NCBI GenBank assembly: GCA_963800655.1
Contig: CAWDBT010000002.1
Location: 641,964 to 705,963 of the forward strand
DNA length: 64,000 nucleotides
DNA from: Parachlamydiales bacterium
GTDB lineage: Bacteria; Chlamydiota; Chlamydiia; Chlamydiales; SM23-39
Direction: 5' to 3'
The notes below the pieces were generated by a model. It was not told the DNA's origin and ran no database searches. It saw nothing but the letters and a program-made list of their open reading frames with translations. The position numbers and the translations under genes are program-made. Shown here piece after piece: positions 7,244 to 37,926 of this stretch. Each line of letters opens with the position of its first letter. Within the stretch, counting starts at the first letter, position 1.

Positions 7244-7909
7244 TCATGCCGGATGGGTCAGCTTTCCATCGGTCAGATGGATTTGCCGATCGGCCATATT
7301 GGCAAACTCAGGGTCATGGGTGACGAGGACAATCGTCGAGGACAGCTCCTTCTTCGCCTTAAATAGAATGTCGATGACCAGCTTGGCATTGGCGGAGTCC
7401 AAAGAACCGGTCGGCTCGTCGGCGAAAATATACTTGGGAGACATGACCAAGGCGCGGGCAATCGCGACCCTTTGCGCTTGTCCCCCCGAGAGCTGCCTCG
7501 GCAAATGGCGGATCTTTTCTTTCAGATCCAATTGCTCCAGCAAGTGGAGCGCGAAATCCCTTTTTTCCTTGGCGCGGTTTTCTCTGCGAGCGGGAAGCAG
7601 GACATTTTCCAATGCGGAAAGCTCGGCGATGAGGTAATGAAATTGGAAGACAAAGCCCGCTTTTCGGTTGCGGAAATCGCAGATCTCTTCGACGCTCATC
7701 TCTTCTATTTTTCTCCCATCGATCTCGATGGAGCCGAAAGAGGGCTTGTCGAGGGTGCTCAATAAGTACAAAAGAGTGCTCTTGCCCGATCCCGATTTCC
7801 CGGTGAGCGCGATGAATTCTCCATTCGCGATCTCCAGATCGATCCCGCTCAATATATCCGCGGGGGGATCTTCGATCCGTTTGCCCGCTTTGATAGCTCG
7901 AATTCCCAT
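7244..7909 (-). CDS. ABC transporter ATP-binding protein (MacB/LolD/DevA type)
   Basis: Walker A GKSGSGKST, signature LSGGQAQRVAIARAL, Walker B IFADEPTGSLD. There is a 1-nt start/stop overlap with the permease gene. Confidence 0.92.
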   Translation of the reverse strand: MGIRAIKAGKRIEDPPADILSGIDLEIANGEFIALTGKSGSGKSTLLYLLSTLDKPSFGSIEIDGRKIEEMSVEEICDFRNRKAGFVFQFHYLIAELSALENVLLPARRENRAKEKRDFALHLLEQLDLKEKIRHLPRQLSGGQAQRVAIARALVMSPKYIFADEPTGSLDSANAKLVIDILFKAKKELSSTIVLVTHDPEFANMADRQIHLTDGKLTHPA

Positions 7910-20396: not shown

Positions 20397-21971
20397 ATGT
20401 CGCAACCCGTGACCAAGGAATTTGGGAAATGGAGATCGTTCTTTTGGCCCGTCCATACGTTCGAGCTCAAAAAATTCCTCCCAATGTTCCTGCTGTTTTT
20501 TTTCATTAATTTCAACTACACGATTCTGCGAGATACGAAAGATACGTTGATCGTAACGGCCCCCGGTTCCGGAGCCGAAGCAATCCCCTTCTTGAAAGTA
20601 TGGGGCGTGCTGCCTTTTGCCATCATCTTCATGCTGATCTATTCCAAGCTCAGCAATATTTTGAGCAAGCAAAAGCTGTTCATGTCGACGATCGCCTTTT
20701 TCGGCGTATTTTTCGCTCTGTTCGCGCTCGTATTCTATCCCCTCCGCGAATCTCTCCATCCGATCGCTTTTGCAGACCAACTGCAAGCGATTCTTCCCAA
20801 AGGATTTGGCGGCCTCGTCGCCATTTTCCGCAACTGGACGTACAGCTTGTTCTATATCATGGCCGAATTGTGGGGCAGCGTTGCGATCTCCCTCTTGTTC
20901 TGGGGATTTGCAAACGATACGACAAAGGTTTCCGAATCCAAGCGCTTTTATGCGATTTTCGGACTAGGCGCAAACCTCGCGATGTATCCATCCGGAATGC
21001 TTGATTAAGAAATTCGCCCTGATCCGCGACTCCGTCGCTCCCTGCGCATATCGATGCTTGGGGCGTCACCCTGAACTATACGCTTGACTGCGGTCTGCAT
21101 CGCTTGCGTATGCGTCATGGCGGTATACTGGTGGATCAATAAAGAAGTCTTAACCGATCCTCGCTTCTTCGATCCGAACGAAGTCAAAAAATCGAAGAAA
21201 GACAAGCCCAAAATGGGCTTGATGGAGAGCTTTATTTTCCTCGGAAAATCTCCTTACATCCTTTGCCTTGCGATCCTCGTCATCAGCTACGGCGTTTCCA
21301 TCAACCTCGTAGAAGTGACCTGGAAAGGCCAGTTGAAGGTTCTATATCCGAATTCCAATGACTACCAGAACTTCATGGGAACGTTCTCCATGCTGACCGC
21401 GACGGCGACCATCTTGATGATGCTCTTCGTCGGCGGCAACGTCATCCGCCGATTCGGCTGGGGCGTTGGAGCATTGATCACCCCCGTCGTTCTTCTGGCG
21501 ACTGGAGTCGGTTTCTTCTCCTGCGTGATTTTCCGCGACTCCCTGATGGGCCTCATCGCCATGATGGGAACAAGTCCGCTGATGCTCGCAGTAGTCTTCG
21601 GAACGGTGCAGAACTTCATCAGCAAATCGGCGAAGTATTCGCTCTTCGATCCAACGAAAGAAATGGCTTATATTCCTCTCGACCAGGAATCTAAAGTCAA
21701 AGGAAAAGCAGCGATCGACGTCGTCGGTGCGCGGCTTGGCAAAGCCGGCGGATCTTTGATCCAGCAAGGCCTGCTCCTCACGTTCGGATCGCTCAGCGCG
21801 ATTACGCCTTATATCGCGGTTATCCTGTTCGCCATCATCGGCGCATGGATCATTGCGGCTCGCGCCCTCAGCCGACGCTTTAATGAGCTCAGCGCTCAGA
21901 AAGGATCGCCTGCGGAAGCCTTGGCTGATAAAGCGAAAACATCTACGACTCCAGCAGGAGCCGCTAGCTAA
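20397..21971 (+). pseudogene. ntt: Npt1/NTT-type ADP/ATP translocase with a scrambled stretch of about 27 codons (three +1 shifts, two in-frame stops)
   Basis: ORFs 20397..21008 and 21084..21971 are in the same frame, and together they form a full-length TLC/NTT protein. Between them the conserved reading runs ...GANLAMYPSGML / IKKFALIRDS / LPAHIDAWGVTLNYTL / TAVCIACV..., moving through frames 0, 1, 2 and back to 0. Confidence 0.85.
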
Positions 21972-29164: not shown

Positions 29165-29177
29165 ATTCGTTTTTTAT

Positions 29178-29250
29178 GTCCTCGTAGCTCAGTGGATAGA
29201 GCGGTCGCCTCCTAAGCGACAGGTCGCAGGTTCAACTCCCGCCGAGGGCA
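29178..29250 (+). tRNA. tRNA-Arg (anticodon CCT)
   Basis: Folded by hand as a 73-nt cloverleaf. The acceptor stem is GTCCTCG/CGAGGGC, the D-loop AGTGGATA, and the anticodon stem-loop GTCGC-CTCCTAA-GCGAC. The T-arm is GCAGG-TTCAACT-CCCGC with one A.C mismatch. No CCA is encoded. Confidence 0.9.
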
Positions 29251-29315
29251 TTCGCTCCTTTCATCGATCCTCTAGTCGCCGCTGCTACGTGGCGCGAGTC
29301 AAATCGACAAAGCTT

Positions 29316-29338: not shown

Positions 29339-30049
29339 CTAAACACCTTCTTGCACATATTCAGAAATTAAAAACTCATAATTAGCTGGTTCTATGCCGT
29401 TAAACGGATGAAAACAAAAATGTTTTGCCCGTTTACTCGATCCAATCCAGAATTCAGCTCCCAAATGACCGAACGCATTTTGCTGTGGCAAGGCCGCATG
29501 TGGAAGGATCTCACTCCCGGCATTTTCCTGAATCAACTCGTGATTCAGCGCCCGAATATGAGATGAAGTCGCCCACCAATACGTCCCGCTATAGTGAGGC
29601 CAATGGCCTAAAAATGTAGCTTCGCGATATAAAACTCCGGCCGTATCATAGCCTTCTTTGAGTTTGGCGACACACTTTTCCCATTGGTAAAGAACATGAT
29701 AGTCCATCATCATCCGCCAAAGTTCGGAAATATACGACTGGCGCCACACTCCTTTCGAATGAAAATAACAAATGTAAGCGTCTGTTTTCTGGGCAAATTC
29801 CAACAAAATTCGCATCGTATTTTTCTCTCTAAGAGATATATCAGAAAATCCGCAAACTTGAATTTTATCATATTTCGATACTAATTTCTGGAGCCACTCG
29901 AAATCCTCAGGTCTCTCATACCCCACACCAAGAAATAGAGAATCGGATTGATCGTAGAGACCTGAAATAAATACTTTTGTAAGCTGATCTTGGATTCTAA
30001 ACTTAAAATCATTCGTCAAAAATACGTGATAAAAAACAGCTATTTTCAC
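29339..30049 (-). CDS. Island paralog A of an uncharacterised ~235-aa family (putative glycan-modifying enzyme)
   Basis: Shares the N-terminus MKIAVFYHVFLTNDFKFRIQDQLTK and the motif HWPHYSGTYWWATSSHIRALN with the genes at 30238 and 31098. The start is set at the GTG giving MKIAVFYHV. The gene is AT-rich. Confidence 0.7.
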   Translation of the reverse strand: MKIAVFYHVFLTNDFKFRIQDQLTKVFISGLYDQSDSLFLGVGYERPEDFEWLQKLVSKYDKIQVCGFSDISLREKNTMRILLEFAQKTDAYICYFHSKGVWRQSYISELWRMMMDYHVLYQWEKCVAKLKEGYDTAGVLYREATFLGHWPHYSGTYWWATSSHIRALNHELIQENAGSEILPHAALPQQNAFGHLGAEFWIGSSKRAKHFCFHPFNGIEPANYEFLISEYVQEGV

Positions 30050-30237
30050 AACCACCTTTTTATAAAAAAATTAAATTAATAAACCATTTTTTTAGATTTT
30101 TATTATCGCAAGCAACGAGATATTTCTAATATTGCACCTCTTGCGATTACAAAAAACAATCATCTTTCGCATAGAAAAAATTCGATTTTTGAAAATACAA
30201 AAAAACAACATTAAATCACTAAAAAGATATATTGAAA

Positions 30238-30936
30238 TCATAAATATTCAAAAATACAATGCTCAATTAAATATGGATTTGTTGCTTTAAGCGGATAGAA
30301 ACAGAAATTCTTAGAATTCCGTCTCGATCCGATCCAAAATTCGGCTCCCAAACGATCGAACGCATCTTGCTCTTGCGGAGACGCATGAGGAAGGATCACG
30401 CTCCCAGCATTCCGCTGAATCAACCTGTGATTGAGAGTCCGAATATGGGACGAAGTCGCCCACCAATACGTCCCGCTGTAGTGAGGCCAATGGCCTAAAA
30501 ATGTATCTTCGCAATATAGAATTCCGGCTGTATCATAGCCTTCTTTAAGTTTGGCGACACACTGTTCCCATTGGAAAAGAACGTGATAATCCATAATCAT
30601 CCGCCAAAGACTCGAATTATATGACTGATGATAGAGTCCCTTGGAATGAAAATAACAAATAAAGGCCTCTTGATGATCGCAAAATTGAGATATCAGCATC
30701 ATTGTATGTTTTTCTGCCAACTCTCCATTTTTAAAACCAACCAGTTTAATTTTTTCATATTTAATAAAAAGCCTTTTCAACCAAAAAAAATCATCGTCCC
30801 GATAATAAACAGCCCCAATAACAACAGAATCGCATTTCTCATAAAGACCAGAAACAAATAGCTTCAAAAACTGATCTTGCACTAGAAACTTAAAATCATT
30901 TACTAAGCATACATGATAAAAAACAGCTGTTTTCAT
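30238..30936 (-). CDS. Island paralog B of the same family
   Basis: MKTAVFYHVCLVNDFKF...HWPHYSGTYWWATSSHIRTLN. The C-terminal half is near-identical to paralog A at the DNA level, while the N-terminal half is divergent. Confidence 0.7.
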   Translation of the reverse strand: MKTAVFYHVCLVNDFKFLVQDQFLKLFVSGLYEKCDSVVIGAVYYRDDDFFWLKRLFIKYEKIKLVGFKNGELAEKHTMMLISQFCDHQEAFICYFHSKGLYHQSYNSSLWRMIMDYHVLFQWEQCVAKLKEGYDTAGILYCEDTFLGHWPHYSGTYWWATSSHIRTLNHRLIQRNAGSVILPHASPQEQDAFDRLGAEFWIGSRRNSKNFCFYPLKATNPYLIEHCIFEYL

Positions 30937-31097
30937 AAAAAACCAATAAAATATCATTTAAAATACAAAACTTTGTCGTTTTTTAGACACTTTCTTATTT
31001 TTAAAACATTGACTGGTTGATATATTATATTTATCGAAAATGAACCTATTCGGAATGCACAAACCCACCCCAACTTCCAAAGATTTTAAAATTAAGA

Positions 31098-31796
31098 TCA
31101 TAAATAACTAGAAATATCATATTCAAAAAAATACGGCTCTATTCCATTAAACGGATAAAAACAGTAATGCTTAAAATCAGGCCTCGAGCCAATCCAAAAT
31201 TCGGCTCCCAAATGAGCGAACTCATCTTGCTTTTGCGCAGACGCATACGGAAGTATAATTCTTCCGGCGTTCTGCTGAATCAAGCCGTGATTCAGCGCTC
31301 GAATATGAGATGAAGTCGTCCACCAATAACCCCCGCTATAGTGAGGCCAATGGCCTAAAACTGTGGCTTCGCGATATAAAATTCCCGCCGTATCATAGCC
31401 TTTTTCGAGCTTCGCGACACACTTTTTCCATTGGAAAAGAACGTGATAGTCCAAAATCATCCGCCAAAGATCGCAAGCATAAGACTGCTGCGACACTCCT
31501 TTTAAATGAAAATAAAAAATGTAAGCATCGTTTTGATTTGCAAAATCCAACAAAACTCGCATCGTATTTTTCTCTCTAAGGGATGGATTAGAAAATCCAC
31601 AAACTTTAATTTTATTATATTTCGATACTAAATTTTGAAGCCAATCGAAATCCTCAGGCCGCTCGTACCCGGCTCCAAGAAATAGAAAATCGCATTGATC
31701 GTAGAGGCCGGAGATAAACAATTTTGTAAGCTGATCTTGAATTCGAAATTTAAAATCGTTCGTCAAAAATACATGATAAAAAACAGCTATTTTCAT
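31098..31796 (-). CDS. Island paralog C of the same family
   Basis: MKIAVFYHVFLTNDFKFRIQDQLTK...HWPHYSGGYWWTTSSHIRALN. By eye it is roughly three quarters identical to paralog A. Confidence 0.7.
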   Translation of the reverse strand: MKIAVFYHVFLTNDFKFRIQDQLTKLFISGLYDQCDFLFLGAGYERPEDFDWLQNLVSKYNKIKVCGFSNPSLREKNTMRVLLDFANQNDAYIFYFHLKGVSQQSYACDLWRMILDYHVLFQWKKCVAKLEKGYDTAGILYREATVLGHWPHYSGGYWWTTSSHIRALNHGLIQQNAGRIILPYASAQKQDEFAHLGAEFWIGSRPDFKHYCFYPFNGIEPYFFEYDISSYL

Positions 31797-31914: not shown

Positions 31915-32850
31915 TTATAAACACATCTCAATAATTGCTTTCTTCGGATTTTCTAGATTGCATTTCCACCAAGAGATTACCTCTTGCAACCTCTCATTCA
32001 AAGATATCTCAGGCTGCCAATGCAGTTCATCTCGAGCCCTGGATACTTCGGCCACAATCGAGGGGGTGTCCAGAATAGATGGCGCAAGTTTTCCGAACTG
32101 CAGCAAATGCTCGCCCCCAATTTGCTCAGCCAAACACAATGCGAGATCCTTTAACGAAATGCCTCGCCCCGAAGCGATATTGATCCCTCCTTCGACAGCC
32201 CTGTCCAACAGAGCTGCAAATCCCTCTCCGGCATCTTTCGAATGGAGGAAATCCCTGATTTGGTTCCCATGGGAACAGGGAATTTCCTCCCCTTTCAGCA
32301 ATCCTCGAATCACAGCCGGTACGAATCGATTGGGATGTTCAGAGGGACCATATAGGTAAAACAAATATCCCCAGGCAAACTCCATCCCGGTTTGTCTGGC
32401 AAATGCCTCGAGCATTAAATATAGCGCTCTTTTTGATGCTCCATAGATGGTCTTCGGACGAAAACGGCTCGTACGTTCTTCGTAGATCCGGCCGGCTTCA
32501 TATTCCGTACAGCTTCCAGCGACGACCATTCGGCGTCCGCCGGATTCGGCAAAACACCTGGCCAAATGCAAACTCGCATTCACCCATTTCCAATTGTCCA
32601 GAGAAGACCAAAATGCTCCATGATCCGTTACCCAGGCGAAGTGGAGCAAATGCGTGAATGAATGCTCGGAGCACAACTTGGCGATTTTCACCTCGTCGAA
32701 GAGATCGAGCTCATGCCAGAACACCCTCTGATCCATGTCAGACGTTTTTTTCCGGCAAATCGCGTGTACTTCATACGATCTTTCATGAAGAGCCGGAAGC
32801 GACCATCTTCCAATAAATCCCGTCCCTCCGGTCACCAATACCTTTTTCAC
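31915..32850 (-). CDS. NAD-dependent epimerase/dehydratase (extended SDR; probable NDP-4-keto-sugar reductase)
   Basis: Rossmann motif VTGGTGFIGR and catalytic YGASK. It is the last gene of the sugar-nucleotide operon. Confidence 0.85.
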   Translation of the reverse strand: MKKVLVTGGTGFIGRWSLPALHERSYEVHAICRKKTSDMDQRVFWHELDLFDEVKIAKLCSEHSFTHLLHFAWVTDHGAFWSSLDNWKWVNASLHLARCFAESGGRRMVVAGSCTEYEAGRIYEERTSRFRPKTIYGASKRALYLMLEAFARQTGMEFAWGYLFYLYGPSEHPNRFVPAVIRGLLKGEEIPCSHGNQIRDFLHSKDAGEGFAALLDRAVEGGINIASGRGISLKDLALCLAEQIGGEHLLQFGKLAPSILDTPSIVAEVSRARDELHWQPEISLNERLQEVISWWKCNLENPKKAIIEMCL

Positions 32851-33374
32851 GTCAAGTCCTCATATCTTCGATCTTTTTCGGACATGCAGGTGATTTCAAG
32901 AGGCCAATGAATTCCCAAAGCAGGGTCATTCCAACGCACTCCCCGCTCGCTTTCCGGCCGATAGCAAGCCGATACGTAATAAAACAGTTCCGTATCGTCT
33001 TCCAATGTCTGAAATCCATGGGCAAACCCCCTCGGGATATAGATCATCTCGCGTTTGTTTTCATGCAGTTCAATCGCGATCCATTCCTTATACGTCGGGG
33101 AATCAGGGCGCAGATCGACGATGACGTCGTAGAGAGAACCCTTTGTGCAGAAAATCACCTTTACCTCCTGATGAGGAGCGATTTGCCGATGCAATCCCCT
33201 CAGGGTTCCTTTGATCCGGTTGCGAGAGATGTTGCATTCGACATAATCCGATTCGAGATTGGCCTGTTTGAACGCCTCTTTCGAAAACGATTTGACGAAC
33301 TCCCCTCTTTCATCCGAAAAAGACTTAAGTTCTATTACATAAGCACCCGTCAATCGCAACGGTTTAAACAGCAT
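32847..33374 (-). CDS. NDP-4-keto-6-deoxyhexose 3,5-epimerase (RmlC-like cupin)
   Basis: 175-aa cupin with RmlC-type motifs (RGLHRQ..., YIPRGFAHGFQTLEDDTELFY). Confidence 0.85.
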   Translation of the reverse strand: MLFKPLRLTGAYVIELKSFSDERGEFVKSFSKEAFKQANLESDYVECNISRNRIKGTLRGLHRQIAPHQEVKVIFCTKGSLYDVIVDLRPDSPTYKEWIAIELHENKREMIYIPRGFAHGFQTLEDDTELFYYVSACYRPESERGVRWNDPALGIHWPLEITCMSEKDRRYEDLT

Positions 33375-34593
33375 GGATCTCCTCTTCGATCGAAAGGGGG
33401 AATAAAAATTTCCCGCCCCAGTTTTGAATGTACGAAAGCTGCTCGGTGATTTCGCGTTTTAAATTCCAAGGAAGAACGAGGACGTAATCTGGACGAACTT
33501 CCTCTATTTTTTCGATTCCGAAGATCGGAATGCGGCTGCCCGGGAGAAAATGTCCTTGTTTATATGGATTGACATCGACTGTAAACGGAAGGAGATCAGG
33601 ATTGACCTTGCAATAATTTAACAAGGTGTTTCCCTTGGCAGGAGCGCCATAGCCGACGACTGATTTTCCCGTCTTCTTTAAATCTTGGAGCTTGGCTACG
33701 AGCCTGTTTCGGATCATTTTAGCCCGTTCGTTAAAGGCCAAATACGTTTTGAGATATCCCAATCCAAACATGTGCTCTTTTGCCCGCAATGCATCGACTC
33801 TCTCTTCGATTTTTCTAGAAGCTCCCGCATGCTGTAGATATACCCTGAGGGATCCGCCGTGCGTGGATAGTTCTTCGACATCGAATATTTCCAGATCGTG
33901 CTGTTCGAAGATTTTTTCGACGCTCAGCAAGGAAAAATAAGAAAAATGTTCGTGATAGATCGTGTCGAATTGGTTTTGTTCGATGAGATTTAAAAGATGA
34001 GGGAACTCTAAGGTGATCGCTCCATCTGGCGCGAGCAGGCATCTAAACCCTTCTACAAAATCATGGAGATCGGGAACATGCGCCAACACATTGTTGCCGA
34101 TCATCAAATCGGCTTTTTCTCCGCGATCCCGCAGGGTTTGAGCGAGCCGTTCCCCAAAAAACTCCGAGATCGTAGGAACGCCTCGTTCAATTGCAATTTT
34201 CGCCACATTTGCAGCCGGTTCGATCCCGAGGACCGGAATTTGCCGAGCTAAGAAATGCTGCAAAAGATACCCGTCATTACTGGCGATCTCGACGACTTTG
34301 TTCGACGAGTCCAATTGAAGGCGTTTTTGAATGTCCTCCGCATATTTTTTTCCATGGGCAATCCAGCTTTCAGAACAGGAGGAAAAGTAAAAATATTCTC
34401 CAAAAATCTCCTCGGGCGTTTGAAATTGCCCGAGCTGCACGAGAAAACACGATCTGCATACATAGGCGCAGAGAGGAAATGCGATCTCTTTTCCATCTGC
34501 TTGTTTTAAATAGGCGTTTGCCGGCGGCGTAGCTCCTAAATCGCAAAAACAATCGAATAGTTCCGCATGACAAGCTCTGCATTTTTGACTCAT
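33364..34593 (-). CDS. SAM-dependent NDP-hexose C-methyltransferase (TylC3-like)
   Basis: N-terminal Cys4 zinc ribbon (CRAC...CFC...CRSC), a class I methyltransferase core (VVEIASNDGYLL) and a C-terminal C-methyltransferase domain (HEHFSYFS). Confidence 0.82.
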   Translation of the reverse strand: MSQKCRACHAELFDCFCDLGATPPANAYLKQADGKEIAFPLCAYVCRSCFLVQLGQFQTPEEIFGEYFYFSSCSESWIAHGKKYAEDIQKRLQLDSSNKVVEIASNDGYLLQHFLARQIPVLGIEPAANVAKIAIERGVPTISEFFGERLAQTLRDRGEKADLMIGNNVLAHVPDLHDFVEGFRCLLAPDGAITLEFPHLLNLIEQNQFDTIYHEHFSYFSLLSVEKIFEQHDLEIFDVEELSTHGGSLRVYLQHAGASRKIEERVDALRAKEHMFGLGYLKTYLAFNERAKMIRNRLVAKLQDLKKTGKSVVGYGAPAKGNTLLNYCKVNPDLLPFTVDVNPYKQGHFLPGSRIPIFGIEKIEEVRPDYVLVLPWNLKREITEQLSYIQNWGGKFLFPLSIEEEIHAV

Positions 34594-35576
34594 CTAATTC
34601 CCTTAATTAAATAGTTTTTGTACCAATCAATCGTCCGTTTCAATCCTTCTTTCAGCGGATAGCGAGATCTCCAACGGAGCCGCTCCTTGGCCTTATCGGC
34701 GTTGAGAGACTGATGCTCGATTTCATTTGAAGCGCATCCCAAAATGTTCGCCTGAATATGCTCGCAGCCCATGAGCCCCTGAATCGCGCCTACGATTTCC
34801 AGAACACTCGAAGGGGCTTCCGGGCCGAAATTAAACGCTTCTCCTTCGACATCGGAGCGATCTAATTGTTCAGCCAACAATAAATATGCTTCGACCGCAT
34901 CTTCGACATAGACGTAGTCGCGAGTATATAAACCATTGCTGCGGATAAGAGGAGGCGTTCCCAATAGAAAACTGCGGATGCTCCCTGGAACAATCCGGCT
35001 CCAATTCATATCCCGCCCTCCATAGATATTCCCGCATCGAGCGATCGCCACTGGTAGGCGATAGGTATGCGCGTAGGAAAGCGCCAAGAGATCGGTGCAA
35101 GATTTAGATACGTCATAAGGATGCTTGCCGCAAAGAGGCATGTCCTCGACATAAGGCAGGCGATCGCTCGACCCGTAGGCCTTGTCGCTCGACGCCACCA
35201 CGATGCGTCGAACGAGTCCGAAAGATCTTCGGCATGCCTCCAAGAGATGGTATGTTCCCCGGATATTGGCTTCAAACGTCCCAAGCGGATTGCGCAAAGC
35301 AGTGCCTACAATCGTCTGCGCTCCTAAATGAAATACCGTATCGATTTCGTATTTATGAATCGCCCGCTCAAGCGCATCGAGATCTTCGAGAGAGCCCGAT
35401 ACGAACTCGACCTGTTGATCGAACGTGCCGCGGCAAGTCAATCGATCTGCTGGAGTATCGTGGATGAGAGCGACGACATCCGCTTTCCGATCTATCAGCG
35501 CTTGCATGAGCCACGACCCTACGAGACCGGTCGCTCCTGTGATAAAAACTCTTTTTTTCTCCCAAAATATATTCAT
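34590..35576 (-). CDS. rfbG: CDP-glucose 4,6-dehydratase
   Basis: FITGATGLVGSWL Rossmann motif and YDVSK catalytic motif. It is RfbG-like throughout and is coupled to rfbF by a 4-nt overlap. Confidence 0.88.
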   Translation of the reverse strand: MNIFWEKKRVFITGATGLVGSWLMQALIDRKADVVALIHDTPADRLTCRGTFDQQVEFVSGSLEDLDALERAIHKYEIDTVFHLGAQTIVGTALRNPLGTFEANIRGTYHLLEACRRSFGLVRRIVVASSDKAYGSSDRLPYVEDMPLCGKHPYDVSKSCTDLLALSYAHTYRLPVAIARCGNIYGGRDMNWSRIVPGSIRSFLLGTPPLIRSNGLYTRDYVYVEDAVEAYLLLAEQLDRSDVEGEAFNFGPEAPSSVLEIVGAIQGLMGCEHIQANILGCASNEIEHQSLNADKAKERLRWRSRYPLKEGLKRTIDWYKNYLIKGIR

Positions 35577-36406
35577 TTAGATTTCACCCTCGACTTGATT
35601 CGTTCCGTCAATTTCGCATCCAGGCCGCTTGAATGATCAGCCCATTTTTTCCAAGGCGCTTTCCCGGATTCCCAAAGGGACTCGAGCAGACGATGTTCCC
35701 GCAGGGTATCCATCGGCTGCCAAAAGCCATCGTGAAAATAAGCCATTAATTCTTTTGTCTCGGCGAGCCGTTCGAGCGGTTCTTTTTCCCAAAGAGTCTC
35801 ATCTCCTTCGATCAAATCGAGGACTTCGGGTTCCAGCACAAAAAATCCCCCGCTCACGCGCCCCTCGAGAAGCTGGTTTTTTTCCGTGAATTCTTCGACG
35901 CAATGGCCGTTAAGAGAAAATCCGCCGAATCGAGCGGGTGGATGAACTGCAGTCAGAGTCGCCAGCCGCCCATGTTCCTTATGGAATGCGACTAGATCCG
36001 CGATATTGACATCGGATAGGCCATCGCCATAGGTCATCATAAATGTTTCGTTGCCGAGATATTGTTTTAGCCTCTTCAAGCGACCTCCGGTTTGCGTAGT
36101 CGACCCGGTATCGATCAGATGGATCTTCCAATTCGGCTGGTTGCCTTTGTAAATCGTCGTTTGCCCCGTCGATAAATCCAAAGACAGATCATGGCTCAAC
36201 GCATAGAAGTCGAGAAAATACTTCTTCACTATTTCCGCTTTATATCCCAATGCGATGATGAATTCGGAATAACCGAATCTCGCATAGGAATTGAGAATAT
36301 GCCAGAGGATCGGTCTCCCGCCGATTTCTACCATCGGCTTTGGAACCAGACCCGTTAATTCAGACAATCGAGTGCCCAAACCGCCTGCTAAAATCACTGT
36401 TTTCAT
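35573..36406 (-). CDS. rfbF: Glucose-1-phosphate cytidylyltransferase
   Basis: MKTVILAGGLGTRLSELTGLVPKPMVEIGGRPILWHI is the canonical RfbF N-terminus. The start is re-assigned from 36514 to the ATG at 36406. Confidence 0.9.
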   Translation of the reverse strand: MKTVILAGGLGTRLSELTGLVPKPMVEIGGRPILWHILNSYARFGYSEFIIALGYKAEIVKKYFLDFYALSHDLSLDLSTGQTTIYKGNQPNWKIHLIDTGSTTQTGGRLKRLKQYLGNETFMMTYGDGLSDVNIADLVAFHKEHGRLATLTAVHPPARFGGFSLNGHCVEEFTEKNQLLEGRVSGGFFVLEPEVLDLIEGDETLWEKEPLERLAETKELMAYFHDGFWQPMDTLREHRLLESLWESGKAPWKKWADHSSGLDAKLTERIKSRVKSK

Positions 36407-36449
36407 AGAAAAACCCGAATAGTTATTTTTATTCTTTTCAAGTTTATAA

Positions 36450-37155
36450 TTAATGAGCTTCAAACCTGCGATCGCAATCTCGATAATGTCCGACATGCAC
36501 CTGAGGAACTTCAATCAATAAACTTTTGTCAATTTCTTTATAAATTGAGTGTTCGATATCGACATCGGTAAACATTGAATAATAAAACATTTTATAAAGC
36601 AGATCCATTGCATTTGAATATAATTTAACAGGAAATGACCACAATACCATCTGAAGATAAAAAGGATAGATTTCTCTATCTTGCCTCCAAGATGGCTCTC
36701 TTTTTCTCAGAACATATTTTTCAGCGCATTCCGTGCTTTCATAATAAGACAGGTCAAATGAATCCATTAATTTATATCTACCAGTCATCTTAAATACTCT
36801 TTTTATATCACCAAAACCGATTCTGTCTTCTATGAATTTCAAACCTTCTATCACAGAATGAACGACTAGAGCGTTCTTTTTAAAAGCGACCCCTGGAACG
36901 GGATCGTATTTTTTTAAAACAGATACGCCATAAACATTTTTCAAACTAATTAATAAATCGGCTTTTTTTTGAATTATCTTATTTGCCTCAGAACTTTCAT
37001 GGCTGATTGAATTTTCTACAACGACAATCAGAGCAGAAGGATCTTTTTTTCTAATGCTATCTACACAATCCAGAACTTGACAGAGCCTTTCTTCTCGGTG
37101 AAAACGCGCTCACATCGCTATAAATGGAAGACGTTAAAACAAACAAATTCCTCAT
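36450..37155 (-). pseudogene. Island family-2 paralog D (GT-A-like?), broken by a 1-nt insertion
   Basis: ATG at 37155 gives MRNLFVLTSSIYSDVSAFSP. The reading then continues in another frame as EERLCQVLDCVDSIRKKDPSALIVVVENS...MTGRYKLMDSFDLSYY (track ORF 36450..36944). It is collinear with paralog E. The span is 706 nt (3n+1) and the shift lies near 37090-37098. Confidence 0.7.
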
Positions 37156-37181: not shown

Positions 37182-37874
37182 TCAATGAATCTCTACACTT
37201 CCATTTCCATCATGCTGATGCATGACATGCAACATTGGAATCTGAATGTGAGCTTTATTCAAAAACTCTTCGAAAAAAAACTTCTCTACAAATGTTATTC
37301 CTAATAAACATTGATAAAATGCTCGATGAAGGATCTCCAATATATCTGGAATCAAATCGAAAGAAAACGACCATAAATCCAGAGGAATTACCGAAAACAC
37401 CTCTTCGCAATTCGGCCTGCGCCACATCACCGGCTCTGCAAAAATATATTTCCCGACAAACTCAGGATTATCATAATAAGATATATCAAAAGAATCCATC
37501 AGTTGATATCGACCTGTCATTCGAAAGATACGTTTTATTTTACAACCCGACAATTTCTGTAAAAACTTTAAAGATTCAACCACAGAATGAATTTCCAAAG
37601 CTCCCTTAACAGGAGGCCACATATTTTTTTTCAAAATAGAAACAATCATATGATCTTTTACAAAAAGAAAAAAATCAACTTTCTCACTGAGAAATGGAAC
37701 AAACTCCGAATCGTTTTGATCTAAAGAATTATCCACCAGAAGAACAATCGACTCCGGATCTTTTAATTTAATTCTTTCGATCGCAGATCGAACTTGCATC
37801 GCCCTGGATTTTGGATCGAAACAACTAACATCGCTAAAAACAGAAGAGGTTAATAAAAAGCAATTACGACCCAT
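37182..37874 (-). CDS. Island family-2 paralog E (uncharacterised, GT-A-like?)
   Basis: MGRNCFLLTSSVFSDVSCFDP...IVLLVDNSLD...MTGRYQLMDSFDISYY. The gene is AT-rich. The 'hydrophobic-strand + D/E-N-S' segment resembles the nucleotide-sugar binding strand of GT-A transferases, but this is a weak match. Confidence 0.6.
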   Translation of the reverse strand: MGRNCFLLTSSVFSDVSCFDPKSRAMQVRSAIERIKLKDPESIVLLVDNSLDQNDSEFVPFLSEKVDFFLFVKDHMIVSILKKNMWPPVKGALEIHSVVESLKFLQKLSGCKIKRIFRMTGRYQLMDSFDISYYDNPEFVGKYIFAEPVMWRRPNCEEVFSVIPLDLWSFSFDLIPDILEILHRAFYQCLLGITFVEKFFFEEFLNKAHIQIPMLHVMHQHDGNGSVEIH

Positions 37875-37926
37875 ACAAGCCATGTTTTATTTTTTTCAAA
37901 ACATAGCGACTATTATTATTAAAAAT

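Follow-up and report, generated by a model that had tools for sequence, protein, structure and literature searches.

In Bacillus, cereose and cillose are 3-C-methyl sugars that decorate spore glycoproteins. Another CDP-linked precedent is vinelose; CDP-vinelose (CDP-6-deoxy-3-C-methyl-2-O-methyl-L-talose) was reportedly isolated as a nucleotide sugar from Azotobacter vinelandii in the 1960s, and we know of no assignment of its biosynthetic genes. On dTDP carriers, the noviose pathway (NovV, NovT, NovW, NovU and NovS) uses five enzyme classes that include an RmlC-fold epimerase and a C5-methyltransferase of the Methyltransf_14 type. A four-gene Bacillus cereus operon, reportedly the subject of Li et al. 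2017 (J Biol Chem 292:7636), is said to make both CDP-cereose and CDP-cillose. These two sugar nucleotides are counted among the characterised pathways in a passage citing Li et al. 2017 (PMC7725333), and an entry in the reference list of a further source gives 3-C-methyl-D-rhamnose as a component of the Phyllobacterium trifolii O-antigen (PMC5644692).

Here we compare these systems with a locus in a 64,000-nucleotide stretch of DNA from a Parachlamydiales bacterium (the window), where five consecutive genes, all intact, occupy positions 31915–36406 of the minus strand. They encode, in order, a glucose-1-phosphate cytidylyltransferase (RfbF), a short dehydratase of the short-chain dehydrogenase/reductase (SDR) type, a SAM-dependent sugar methyltransferase, an RmlC-like epimerase and a final SDR. 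Successive genes overlap by 4, 4, 11 and 4 nt (ATGA, ATGA, ATG...TAA and GTGA), an arrangement consistent with translational coupling; ORF analysis reproduced exactly the coordinates and the 4–11-nt overlaps given in an initial annotation of this DNA. Scans for promoters and terminators gave no signal above that of shuffled sequences. We consider it likely that the five genes constitute a single operon with translational coupling, whose enzymes would build a CDP-activated 6-deoxyhexose with a C-methyl branch from glucose-1-phosphate and CTP. The initial annotation had proposed such a product, and the prediction is supported by the enzyme families, the catalytic motifs, a gene order conserved across many genomes and the resemblance to a B. 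cereus-group operon. In the pathway that we envision, RfbF would form CDP-D-glucose, the short SDR would dehydrate it to CDP-4-keto-6-deoxy-D-glucose, the methyltransferase would add a methyl group adjacent to the keto carbon (most likely at C3), the RmlC-like enzyme would invert C5 and the last SDR would reduce the 4-keto group. The sugar would then presumably be added to a surface glycan, either lipooligosaccharide or protein, by some glycosyltransferase.

The B. cereus type of operon shares with the window CDP activation by RfbF, a C-methyltransferase that uses SAM and has the same domain layout, and an SDR reductase at the end, all in the same order, with a 4,6-dehydration that is predicted for the window as well. 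It differs in having four genes and D-series products, whereas the window carries an additional RmlC-like epimerase between methyltransferase and reductase, and a dehydratase of a shorter subtype. For a direct comparison we used a Bacillus thuringiensis plasmid operon (L122) with the order rfbF-rfbG-methyltransferase-SDR, whose proteins are 51, 33, 52 and 38% identical to their window counterparts; the last of these values (E = 1e-62) refers to a fourth gene that is split by a stop in the plasmid operon. L122 matches the four-gene operon of Li et al. by gene set, and we assume that it is equivalent to the characterised one.

The rfbF gene (277 aa, 35573–36406, minus strand) lies in an ORF spanning 35573–36514, of which the real start is the ATG at 36406, giving MKTVILAGG. 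Its product matches the TIGR02623 equivalog with 362 bits against a cut-off of 300, which upholds, at the family level, its earlier assignment as a glucose-1-phosphate cytidylyltransferase, and it is 59–72% identical to the counterparts in other cassettes of the phylum. The second gene (328 aa, 34590–35576, minus strand) encodes a putative CDP-glucose 4,6-dehydratase of the short subtype. The protein falls 30 residues short of canonical RfbG, and its best NCBIfam match, CDP_4_6_dhtase, reaches 212 bits, under the cut-off of 278; both features would also suit a C4-dehydrogenase, in which case the methylated sugar would retain its 6-hydroxyl. We regard such an activity as highly improbable, as the best solved structures are two CDP-glucose 4,6-dehydratases (1rkx and 1wvg) that align with the protein from end to end, SSDKAYG aligns with their TSDKCYD so that the Ser-Asp-Lys acid/base motif is kept, and PYDVSK provides the YxxxK motif. 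Furthermore, canonical RfbG, 30–35% identical to the window protein, fills the same slot after rfbF in other phyla, and no gene for recycling 2-hydroxyglutarate was found near the operon. Within the cassettes of the phylum, the dehydratase gene always follows rfbF immediately (56–64% identity). A specific identity as a Cj1427-like dehydrogenase was considered and rejected because the Ser-Asp-Lys motif is present. We retain 4,6-dehydratase as the putative assignment; that a 328-aa protein with the CDP-type catalytic motif falls under the NCBI equivalog threshold is one useful point to come from this locus.

The third gene (409 aa, 33364–34593, minus strand) encodes a methyltransferase with an N-terminal zinc ribbon (Methyltransf_13, PF08421), a SAM domain (Methyltransf_23, PF13489) and a C-terminal domain (Methyltransf_14, PF08484), an architecture shared with MtmC, KijD1 and TcaB9. 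The Cys4 ribbon noted in the initial annotation of a TylC3-type methyltransferase is real, with C5, C8, C46 and C49 invariant across 24 homologues. Equally invariant in these 24 are Y69, H172, Y213, E215 and H216, which align with KijD1 and MtmC and correspond to the active-site positions of TcaB9 (Y76, H181, Y222, E224 and H225). The solved relatives, MtmC (1e-76) followed by KijD1 and TcaB9 (E values from 1e-60 to 1e-76 overall), are all C3-methyltransferases, and the window enzyme probably targets the carbon beside the keto group, most likely C3. Sequence motifs cannot, by themselves, tell C3- from C5-methyltransferases. The noviose pathway, with its dTDP carrier, C5 methylation and antibiotic cluster, comprises the same five enzyme classes as the window, and a structural search with the window epimerase also matches NovW (5e-27). 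A NovU-like methyltransferase acting at C5 would, after the epimerase and reductase, yield a CDP-5-C-methyl-6-deoxyhexose with a gem-dimethyl C5; one source automatically annotates a 57%-identical Planktothrix orthologue as 'C-methyltransferase NovU'. We find this outcome unlikely, since the solved relatives are C3 enzymes without exception, the epimerase matches true RmlC enzymes far better than NovW, and the orthologous methyltransferase with 52% identity sits in a B. cereus-group rfbF-rfbG-methyltransferase-SDR operon, a type whose reported products are 3-C-methyl sugars. Vinelose, the known natural CDP-linked branched sugar, is likewise a 3-C-methyl compound. A Phyllobacterium trifolii locus (L031) gave too unclear a picture to inform the regiochemistry; the cluster there is of the EPS type and its RfbF-like gene is divergent.

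The fourth gene encodes an RmlC-like 4-keto-6-deoxyhexose 3,5-epimerase (175 aa, 32847–33374, minus strand) that scores 179 bits against the rmlC cut-off of 156 (TIGR01221). The best structures are dTDP-4-dehydrorhamnose 3,5-epimerases (2e-41), and the protein aligns with RmlC at all four catalytic positions, namely the His of GLHrQ, a Lys, the Tyr of CYRPE and the Asp of SEKD. Its neighbours, RfbF and a dehydratase of the CDP type, point to a substrate carried on CDP rather than dTDP-4-dehydrorhamnose. The enzyme probably acts at C5; because C3 would be quaternary once methylated, only C5 could then hold a lasting epimerisation. It could act at C3 only, or ahead of methylation. Were it confined to C3, redundant after the methyltransferase or inactive on the methylated sugar, the products would be D-sugars of the cillose/cereose type, as in Bacillus, and RmlC-fold mono-epimerases are indeed found among its matches (the 3-epimerase ChmJ, 4hn0, and GDP-heptose 3-epimerases, 8dcl), while two relatives (L104 and L105) have no epimerase beside the methyltransferase. 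Such a D-series outcome seems quite unlikely to us. The window enzyme retains all four RmlC catalytic positions, with genuine 3,5-epimerases as its best matches; by chemical reasoning, any inversion at C3 would be lost on C3 methylation; and most cassettes, in whatever phylum, have the epimerase gene immediately beside that of the methyltransferase, which speaks for a requirement.

Assuming C5 inversion, the extra epimerase would probably direct the window pathway to the L-series C5 epimers of the Bacillus sugars. The last step would fall to the fifth gene (311 aa, GTG start, 31915–32850, minus strand), an extended SDR that is a probable NAD(P)H-dependent 4-ketoreductase. It matches Pfam Epimerase (2.7e-42), contains the Rossmann motif GGTGFIG and, in YGASK, the YxxxK motif, and is 40–48% identical to the terminal cassette gene in relatives; a search of NCBIfam gave no equivalog match. 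The most likely products, given 5-epimerisation, are the vinelose-like CDP-6-deoxy-3-C-methyl-L-talose or CDP-3-C-methyl-L-rhamnose. These two would be the C5 epimers of the cillose and cereose of B. cereus, and the L-talose form corresponds to vinelose without its O-methyl group. CDP-vinelose, a CDP-linked 3-C-methyl 6-deoxy L-hexose, would match the five-enzyme skeleton if the reductase gives the talo configuration; it differs in bearing a 2-O-methyl group, and an O-methyltransferase is absent from the window block. The sequence of methylation, epimerisation and reduction on a 4-keto-6-deoxy sugar also parallels the late steps of dTDP-L-mycarose biosynthesis (the C3-methyltransferase TylC3, the 5-epimerase TylK and the 4-ketoreductase TylC2). 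The mycarose pathway differs in its dTDP carrier and antibiotic cluster, in contrast to the predicted CDP carrier and surface-glycan context of the window, and, with neither a 2,3-dehydratase nor a 3-ketoreductase in the window, the 2-hydroxyl would be kept here, unlike in mycarose.

Among 301 sampled genomes of the same phylum, 24 (about 8%) carry a close orthologue of the methyltransferase, mostly with the whole cassette; the closest homologue (P0002) is 72% identical. The loci were found with an alignment-based search of genome contigs. The order rfbF-dehydratase-methyltransferase-epimerase-SDR is present in at least nine further members of the phylum (L106, L108, L110, L111, L112, L114, L116, L117 and L119), as well as in a gammaproteobacterium (L073), a delta-proteobacterium (L032) and a Ca. 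Sulfotelmatobacter MAG (L053). A further locus with this order, L001, is the same contig as L106. Cassettes in this phylum, Pseudomonadota, Acidobacteriota, Planctomycetota and others have an identical gene order, with 45–70% identity per protein. The relatives show no shared synteny with the surroundings of the window cassette (AmiA, MurE, FtsI, LepA and neighbours), and the cassette lies at a different site in each genome. The initial annotation held branched-chain sugars to be rare outside antibiotic producers and a few O-antigens, a view that fails at the gene level: at E ≤ 1e-30 the subfamily of the methyltransferase numbers more than 8000 proteins, the five-gene order recurs in several phyla, and the 24 genomes above carry a close orthologue. 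Its statement that none had been described for Chlamydiota agrees with our search, which found no paper on such a pathway in this phylum. The CDP precedents (cereose/cillose and CDP-vinelose) went unmentioned there. The cassette is an unexceptional instance of a widespread pathway, and the earlier interpretation, largely right, is not new.

The significance of the locus is modest, as a CDP route to 3-C-methyl-6-deoxyhexoses has been reported from B. cereus and the five-gene form is common in many phyla. To our knowledge, this epimerase-containing form has apparently never been assayed or characterised; its product would make an inexpensive and well-defined target for biochemistry, and the five genes may fill a long-standing gap, the genetic basis of sugars of the CDP-vinelose type.

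The usual view is that chlamydiae have only a rough Kdo-lipid A lipooligosaccharide. The 1.43-Mb genome that harbours the window looks chlamydial, a view supported by at least four full-length NTT transporters, a type III secretion SctU-like gene and the relatives of MurE. It also encodes a Wzy_C protein and at least eight GT2 genes. In relatives, the genes beside the cassette include GT2 and GT61 glycosyltransferases, an ABC exporter and extra methyltransferases; no conserved glycosyltransferase partner of the cassette was found among them. That environmental Chlamydiota repeatedly carry the cassette together with glycosyltransferases suggests surface glycans richer than the rough lipooligosaccharide of the pathogens.

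The genes flanking the operon in the window include possible glycosyltransferases of their own. Upstream, q2 (233 aa, 37182–37883, minus strand, GC 0.35) is a candidate glycosyltransferase of the GT-A fold; a search assigned it to no Pfam family, its AlphaFold model has a pLDDT of 95, and its best Foldseek matches are BoGT6a, glycogenin and alpha-1,3-GalT (TM 0.5–0.57). Next to it, q1 (36450–37153, minus strand, GC 0.34), read from the sequence, is a frameshifted paralogue of q2 that matches the A3 profile at 2.4e-61. On the other side, three tandem low-GC paralogues (pA, pB and pC; 232–239 aa, 29339–31796, minus strand), assigned to PF27674 in precomputed Pfam data, are possibly GT-A-like; a structure model has a pLDDT of 72, with weak matches to GT-A and nucleotidyltransferase folds (TM 0.4–0.5). 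It is doubtful, in our judgement, that this lineage and about one in twelve genomes of the phylum place a vinelose-like, L-configured branched deoxysugar on the envelope, with the flanking GT-A-fold proteins of the q2 and PF27674 families as the transferases here. As dedicated glycosyltransferases of the cassette, these low-GC genes are unsupported: their GC content differs from that of the operon, the q2 family is absent from the 299 other genomes of the phylum, and the pA family occurs in five of these 299, just one of which also has the methyltransferase. Three pA-like genes also stand together on a 6.6-kb contig. The edge of the window block is marked by a tRNA-Arg(CCT) gene identified with ARAGORN (29177–29251, plus strand).

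The five-gene operon of the initial annotation is present as described, in its ORFs, its junctions and its family assignments alike. Gene 1, rfbF, was listed as an ORF at 35573-36514 that opens with TTG; because the family model begins at residue 37 and an ATG at 36406 yields MKTVILAGG, the start is corrected to 36406, and the operon end previously placed at that position is right. There follow, as ORF calls likewise on the minus strand, an extended SDR of the 4,6-dehydratase type (gene 2, 34590-35576), a C-methyltransferase (gene 3, 33364-34593), an RmlC-like epimerase (gene 4, 32847-33374) and a further extended SDR (gene 5, 31915-32850). Successive genes overlap at ATGA, at ATGA, over 11 nt (ATG...TAA) and at GTGA, and the arrangement of all four gene pairs is one of predicted translational coupling. 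The cassette sits between tRNA-Arg(CCT) and amiA-murE; GC is 0.46-0.51 in its five genes, 0.51 in the rest of the window and 0.33-0.40 in the genes on both sides.

The gene 1 product is a glucose-1-phosphate cytidylyltransferase (TIGR02623, 362 bits against a cut-off of 300). For gene 2 (328 aa) the top model is CDP-glucose 4,6-dehydratase, at 212 bits under a cut-off of 278, and the nearest solved structures are the CDP-glucose 4,6-dehydratases of Yersinia and Salmonella (1rkx, 1wvg). Its SSDKAYG motif aligns with TSDKCYD of these two enzymes, at a site where dTDP-glucose dehydratases in the same structure alignment carry TDE, and PYDVSK supplies the YxxxK pair. That gene 2 retains Ser-Asp-Lys speaks against its being a C4-dehydrogenase, the other enzyme type considered for this step. 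Gene 3 combines zinc-ribbon, SAM and C-terminal domains, as in sugar C-methyltransferases, and matches the structures of MtmC, KijD1 and TcaB9 (E 1e-60 to 1e-76). Across 24 homologues its four cysteines are invariant, as are Y69, H172, Y213, E215 and H216; these five match active-site positions in the solved structures, with residue roles as described for TcaB9. Gene 4 exceeds the rmlC equivalog cut-off (179 bits against 156), with His, Lys, Tyr and Asp conserved at the catalytic positions of RmlC. Gene 5 shows the GGTGFIG and YGASK motifs of an extended SDR, has no equivalog, and finds no match among solved structures better than 3e-20.

A closely related route, encoded by a four-gene Bacillus cereus operon, has been reported by Li et al. 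(2017), whose enzymes are reportedly a cytidylyltransferase, a CDP-glucose 4,6-dehydratase, a SAM C-methyltransferase and a 4-reductase, and whose products are said to be CDP-3-C-methyl-6-deoxy-gulose and -allose. On a Bacillus thuringiensis plasmid (NZ_CP094625.1, locus L122), rfbF, rfbG and the methyltransferase are followed by an SDR, with 51, 33, 52 and 38% identity to the window proteins, and gene 5 matches this fourth gene at E 1e-62; the window cassette therefore corresponds to the cer-type gene set plus an epimerase, which the Bacillus cer-type operon lacks. In the plasmid's own reductase gene (L122:7173-8099), which lies beside IS elements, a stop near 7536 leaves two separate ORFs. 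Together, the family matches, the motifs and the likeness to the cer-type operon give good support to the predicted pathway to a CDP-linked C-methyl 6-deoxyhexose, at that level of detail. PMC7725333 cites Li et al., lists CDP-cereose/CDP-cillose as a characterised pathway and predicts it in 81/12939 genomes. A ddhA-ddhB-'NDP-hexose 3-C-methyltransferase' set is also present on S. meliloti pSymB (PMC4053727).

The additional epimerase would bear on the product. Once methylated, C3 would have no proton, and an RmlC-type enzyme would leave a lasting change at C5 only. TylK plays a C5-acting role of the same sort in mycarose synthesis. Inversion at C5 would turn 6-deoxy-3-C-methyl-D-allose into 6-deoxy-3-C-methyl-L-talose, which is vinelose minus its 2-O-methyl group, and the D-gulo sugar into 3-C-methyl-L-rhamnose. 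The isolation of CDP-vinelose from Azotobacter vinelandii is reported to date from the 1960s; our literature search for this compound returned no paper. 3-C-methyl-rhamnose is already known as an O-antigen sugar of Phyllobacterium, Azorhizobium and Burkholderia andropogonis. We retain noviose-type chemistry, with methylation at C5 instead of C3, as an unlikely alternative, since the noviose pathway uses the same five enzyme classes as the cassette and sequence cannot separate the two methylation sites.

Branched-chain sugars of this kind had been considered rare and undescribed for Chlamydiota. A literature search found no paper tying CDP-glucose or a pathway of this kind to chlamydiae, but the claim of rarity is not supported: the cassette is widespread among phyla and turns up repeatedly in Chlamydiota. 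The methyltransferase subfamily is very large and well conserved (>8000 proteins at E<=1e-30), and its members in Planktothrix, Burkholderiales, Nitrospiria and Verrucomicrobia share 55-63% identity with gene 3. When species-representative genomes were scanned with a sequence pattern, there were at least 600 matching stretches, 599 of them confirmed among the matches listed, which include Nostoc, Nitrospira, rhizobia, Brucella, Planctomycetota, Acidobacteriota and others. Among the tblastn matches listed for the five window proteins, the identical order rfbF-dehydratase-methyltransferase-epimerase-SDR occurs in L001 (on the contig of the chlamydial locus L106), L032 (a delta-proteobacterium), L053 (Ca. 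Sulfotelmatobacter) and L073 (Gammaproteobacteria), and about a dozen further loci hold the first four genes in window order. The cassette is an ordinary case, the CDP route having already been published for Bacillus; its remaining value lies in the five-gene, epimerase-containing form, which appears never to have been assayed. Separately, the methyltransferases of an Aliterella MAG (L046, cyanobacterial) and a Tatlockia MAG (L067, Legionellaceae) are near-identical (branch lengths 0.035 and 0.012), which indicates that a bin is contaminated or wrongly assigned, or else that the gene moved very recently.

Within the phylum, a close methyltransferase orthologue (E<=1e-90, 52-60% identity) is found in 24/301 sampled genomes and 19/166 genera, all of a single order. 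Of twenty 15-kb regions around these orthologues, at least nine keep the window's five-gene order; in two the epimerase precedes the methyltransferase, and an insertion is present in three. The short dehydratase subtype is shared by phylum relatives (56-64% identity); in most other phyla the same slot holds a canonical RfbG with 30-35% identity to gene 2. In a FastTree phylogeny with local supports only, rooted on distant in-phylum paralogues, most phylum copies fall outside a clade (support 97%) of 79 rows drawn nearly all from other phyla, and the window copy, on a long branch, lies nearest to same-order copies. The copy of G293 (locus L113), a genome of the window's own family, lies inside that clade with Ca. 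Brocadia (L008, Planctomycetota; support 99), and not with the other copies of its phylum; the family thus acquired at least one of its cassettes from outside. No shared flanks were found among the phylum relatives, and the cassette thus occupies different genomic sites.

Two relatives in the phylum have glycosyltransferase genes next to the cassette: in L106 an ABC exporter and a GT2 gene come after it, and in L110 its neighbours are GT61 and GT2 genes together with three methyltransferases. Elsewhere in the window's own genome are a Wzy_C protein of the O-antigen ligase/polymerase type (G000:C2:448804-449229) and at least eight GT2 glycosyltransferase genes (for example at C2:626723, C2:627856 and C3:200525), glycan machinery that, in a small chlamydial genome, goes beyond the needs of a rough Kdo-lipid A envelope. 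Upstream of the operon on the minus strand, the low-GC gene q2 (37182-37883, 233 aa, without a Pfam family) has a frameshifted paralogue, q1 (36450-37153). The q2 model (pLDDT 95) predicts a GT-A fold nearest to BoGT6a, glycogenin and alpha-1,3-GalT, suggesting closest likeness to retaining GT6/GT8 enzymes; a public protein library holds about 200 representative clusters of its family, which was found in 0/299 other phylum genomes. Downstream, the tandem paralogues pA, pB and pC (29339-31796, minus strand, 232-239 aa, 58-75% identical, GC 0.37-0.40) belong to the small, new Pfam family PF27674, three members of which lie on one 6.6-kb metagenome contig; their fold model, moderate and weaker than that of q2, may be GT-A- or nucleotidyltransferase-like. 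The pA family occurs in 5/299 other phylum genomes, only one of which has the methyltransferase. Neither flank family tracks the cassette.

The assignment to Chlamydiota is sound. The genome comprises four contigs totalling 1.43 Mb; marker genes put its completeness at only 72%, and broken genes occur in other parts of the window. Its full-length TLC nucleotide transporters number at least four, an SctU-like gene of type III secretion falls just short of the equivalog cut-off, and the relatives of its MurE are MAGs of Chlamydiota, Parachlamydiales, Chlamydiales or Verrucomicrobia (51-56% identity). A search of the genome for OmcB gave no match, and its control likewise gave none. The genome's top-scoring TLC/NTT transporter gene (20412-21881, plus strand, 689 bits) contains one TGA and one TAA within the match, the mark of a pseudogene or else of a fault in the assembly.
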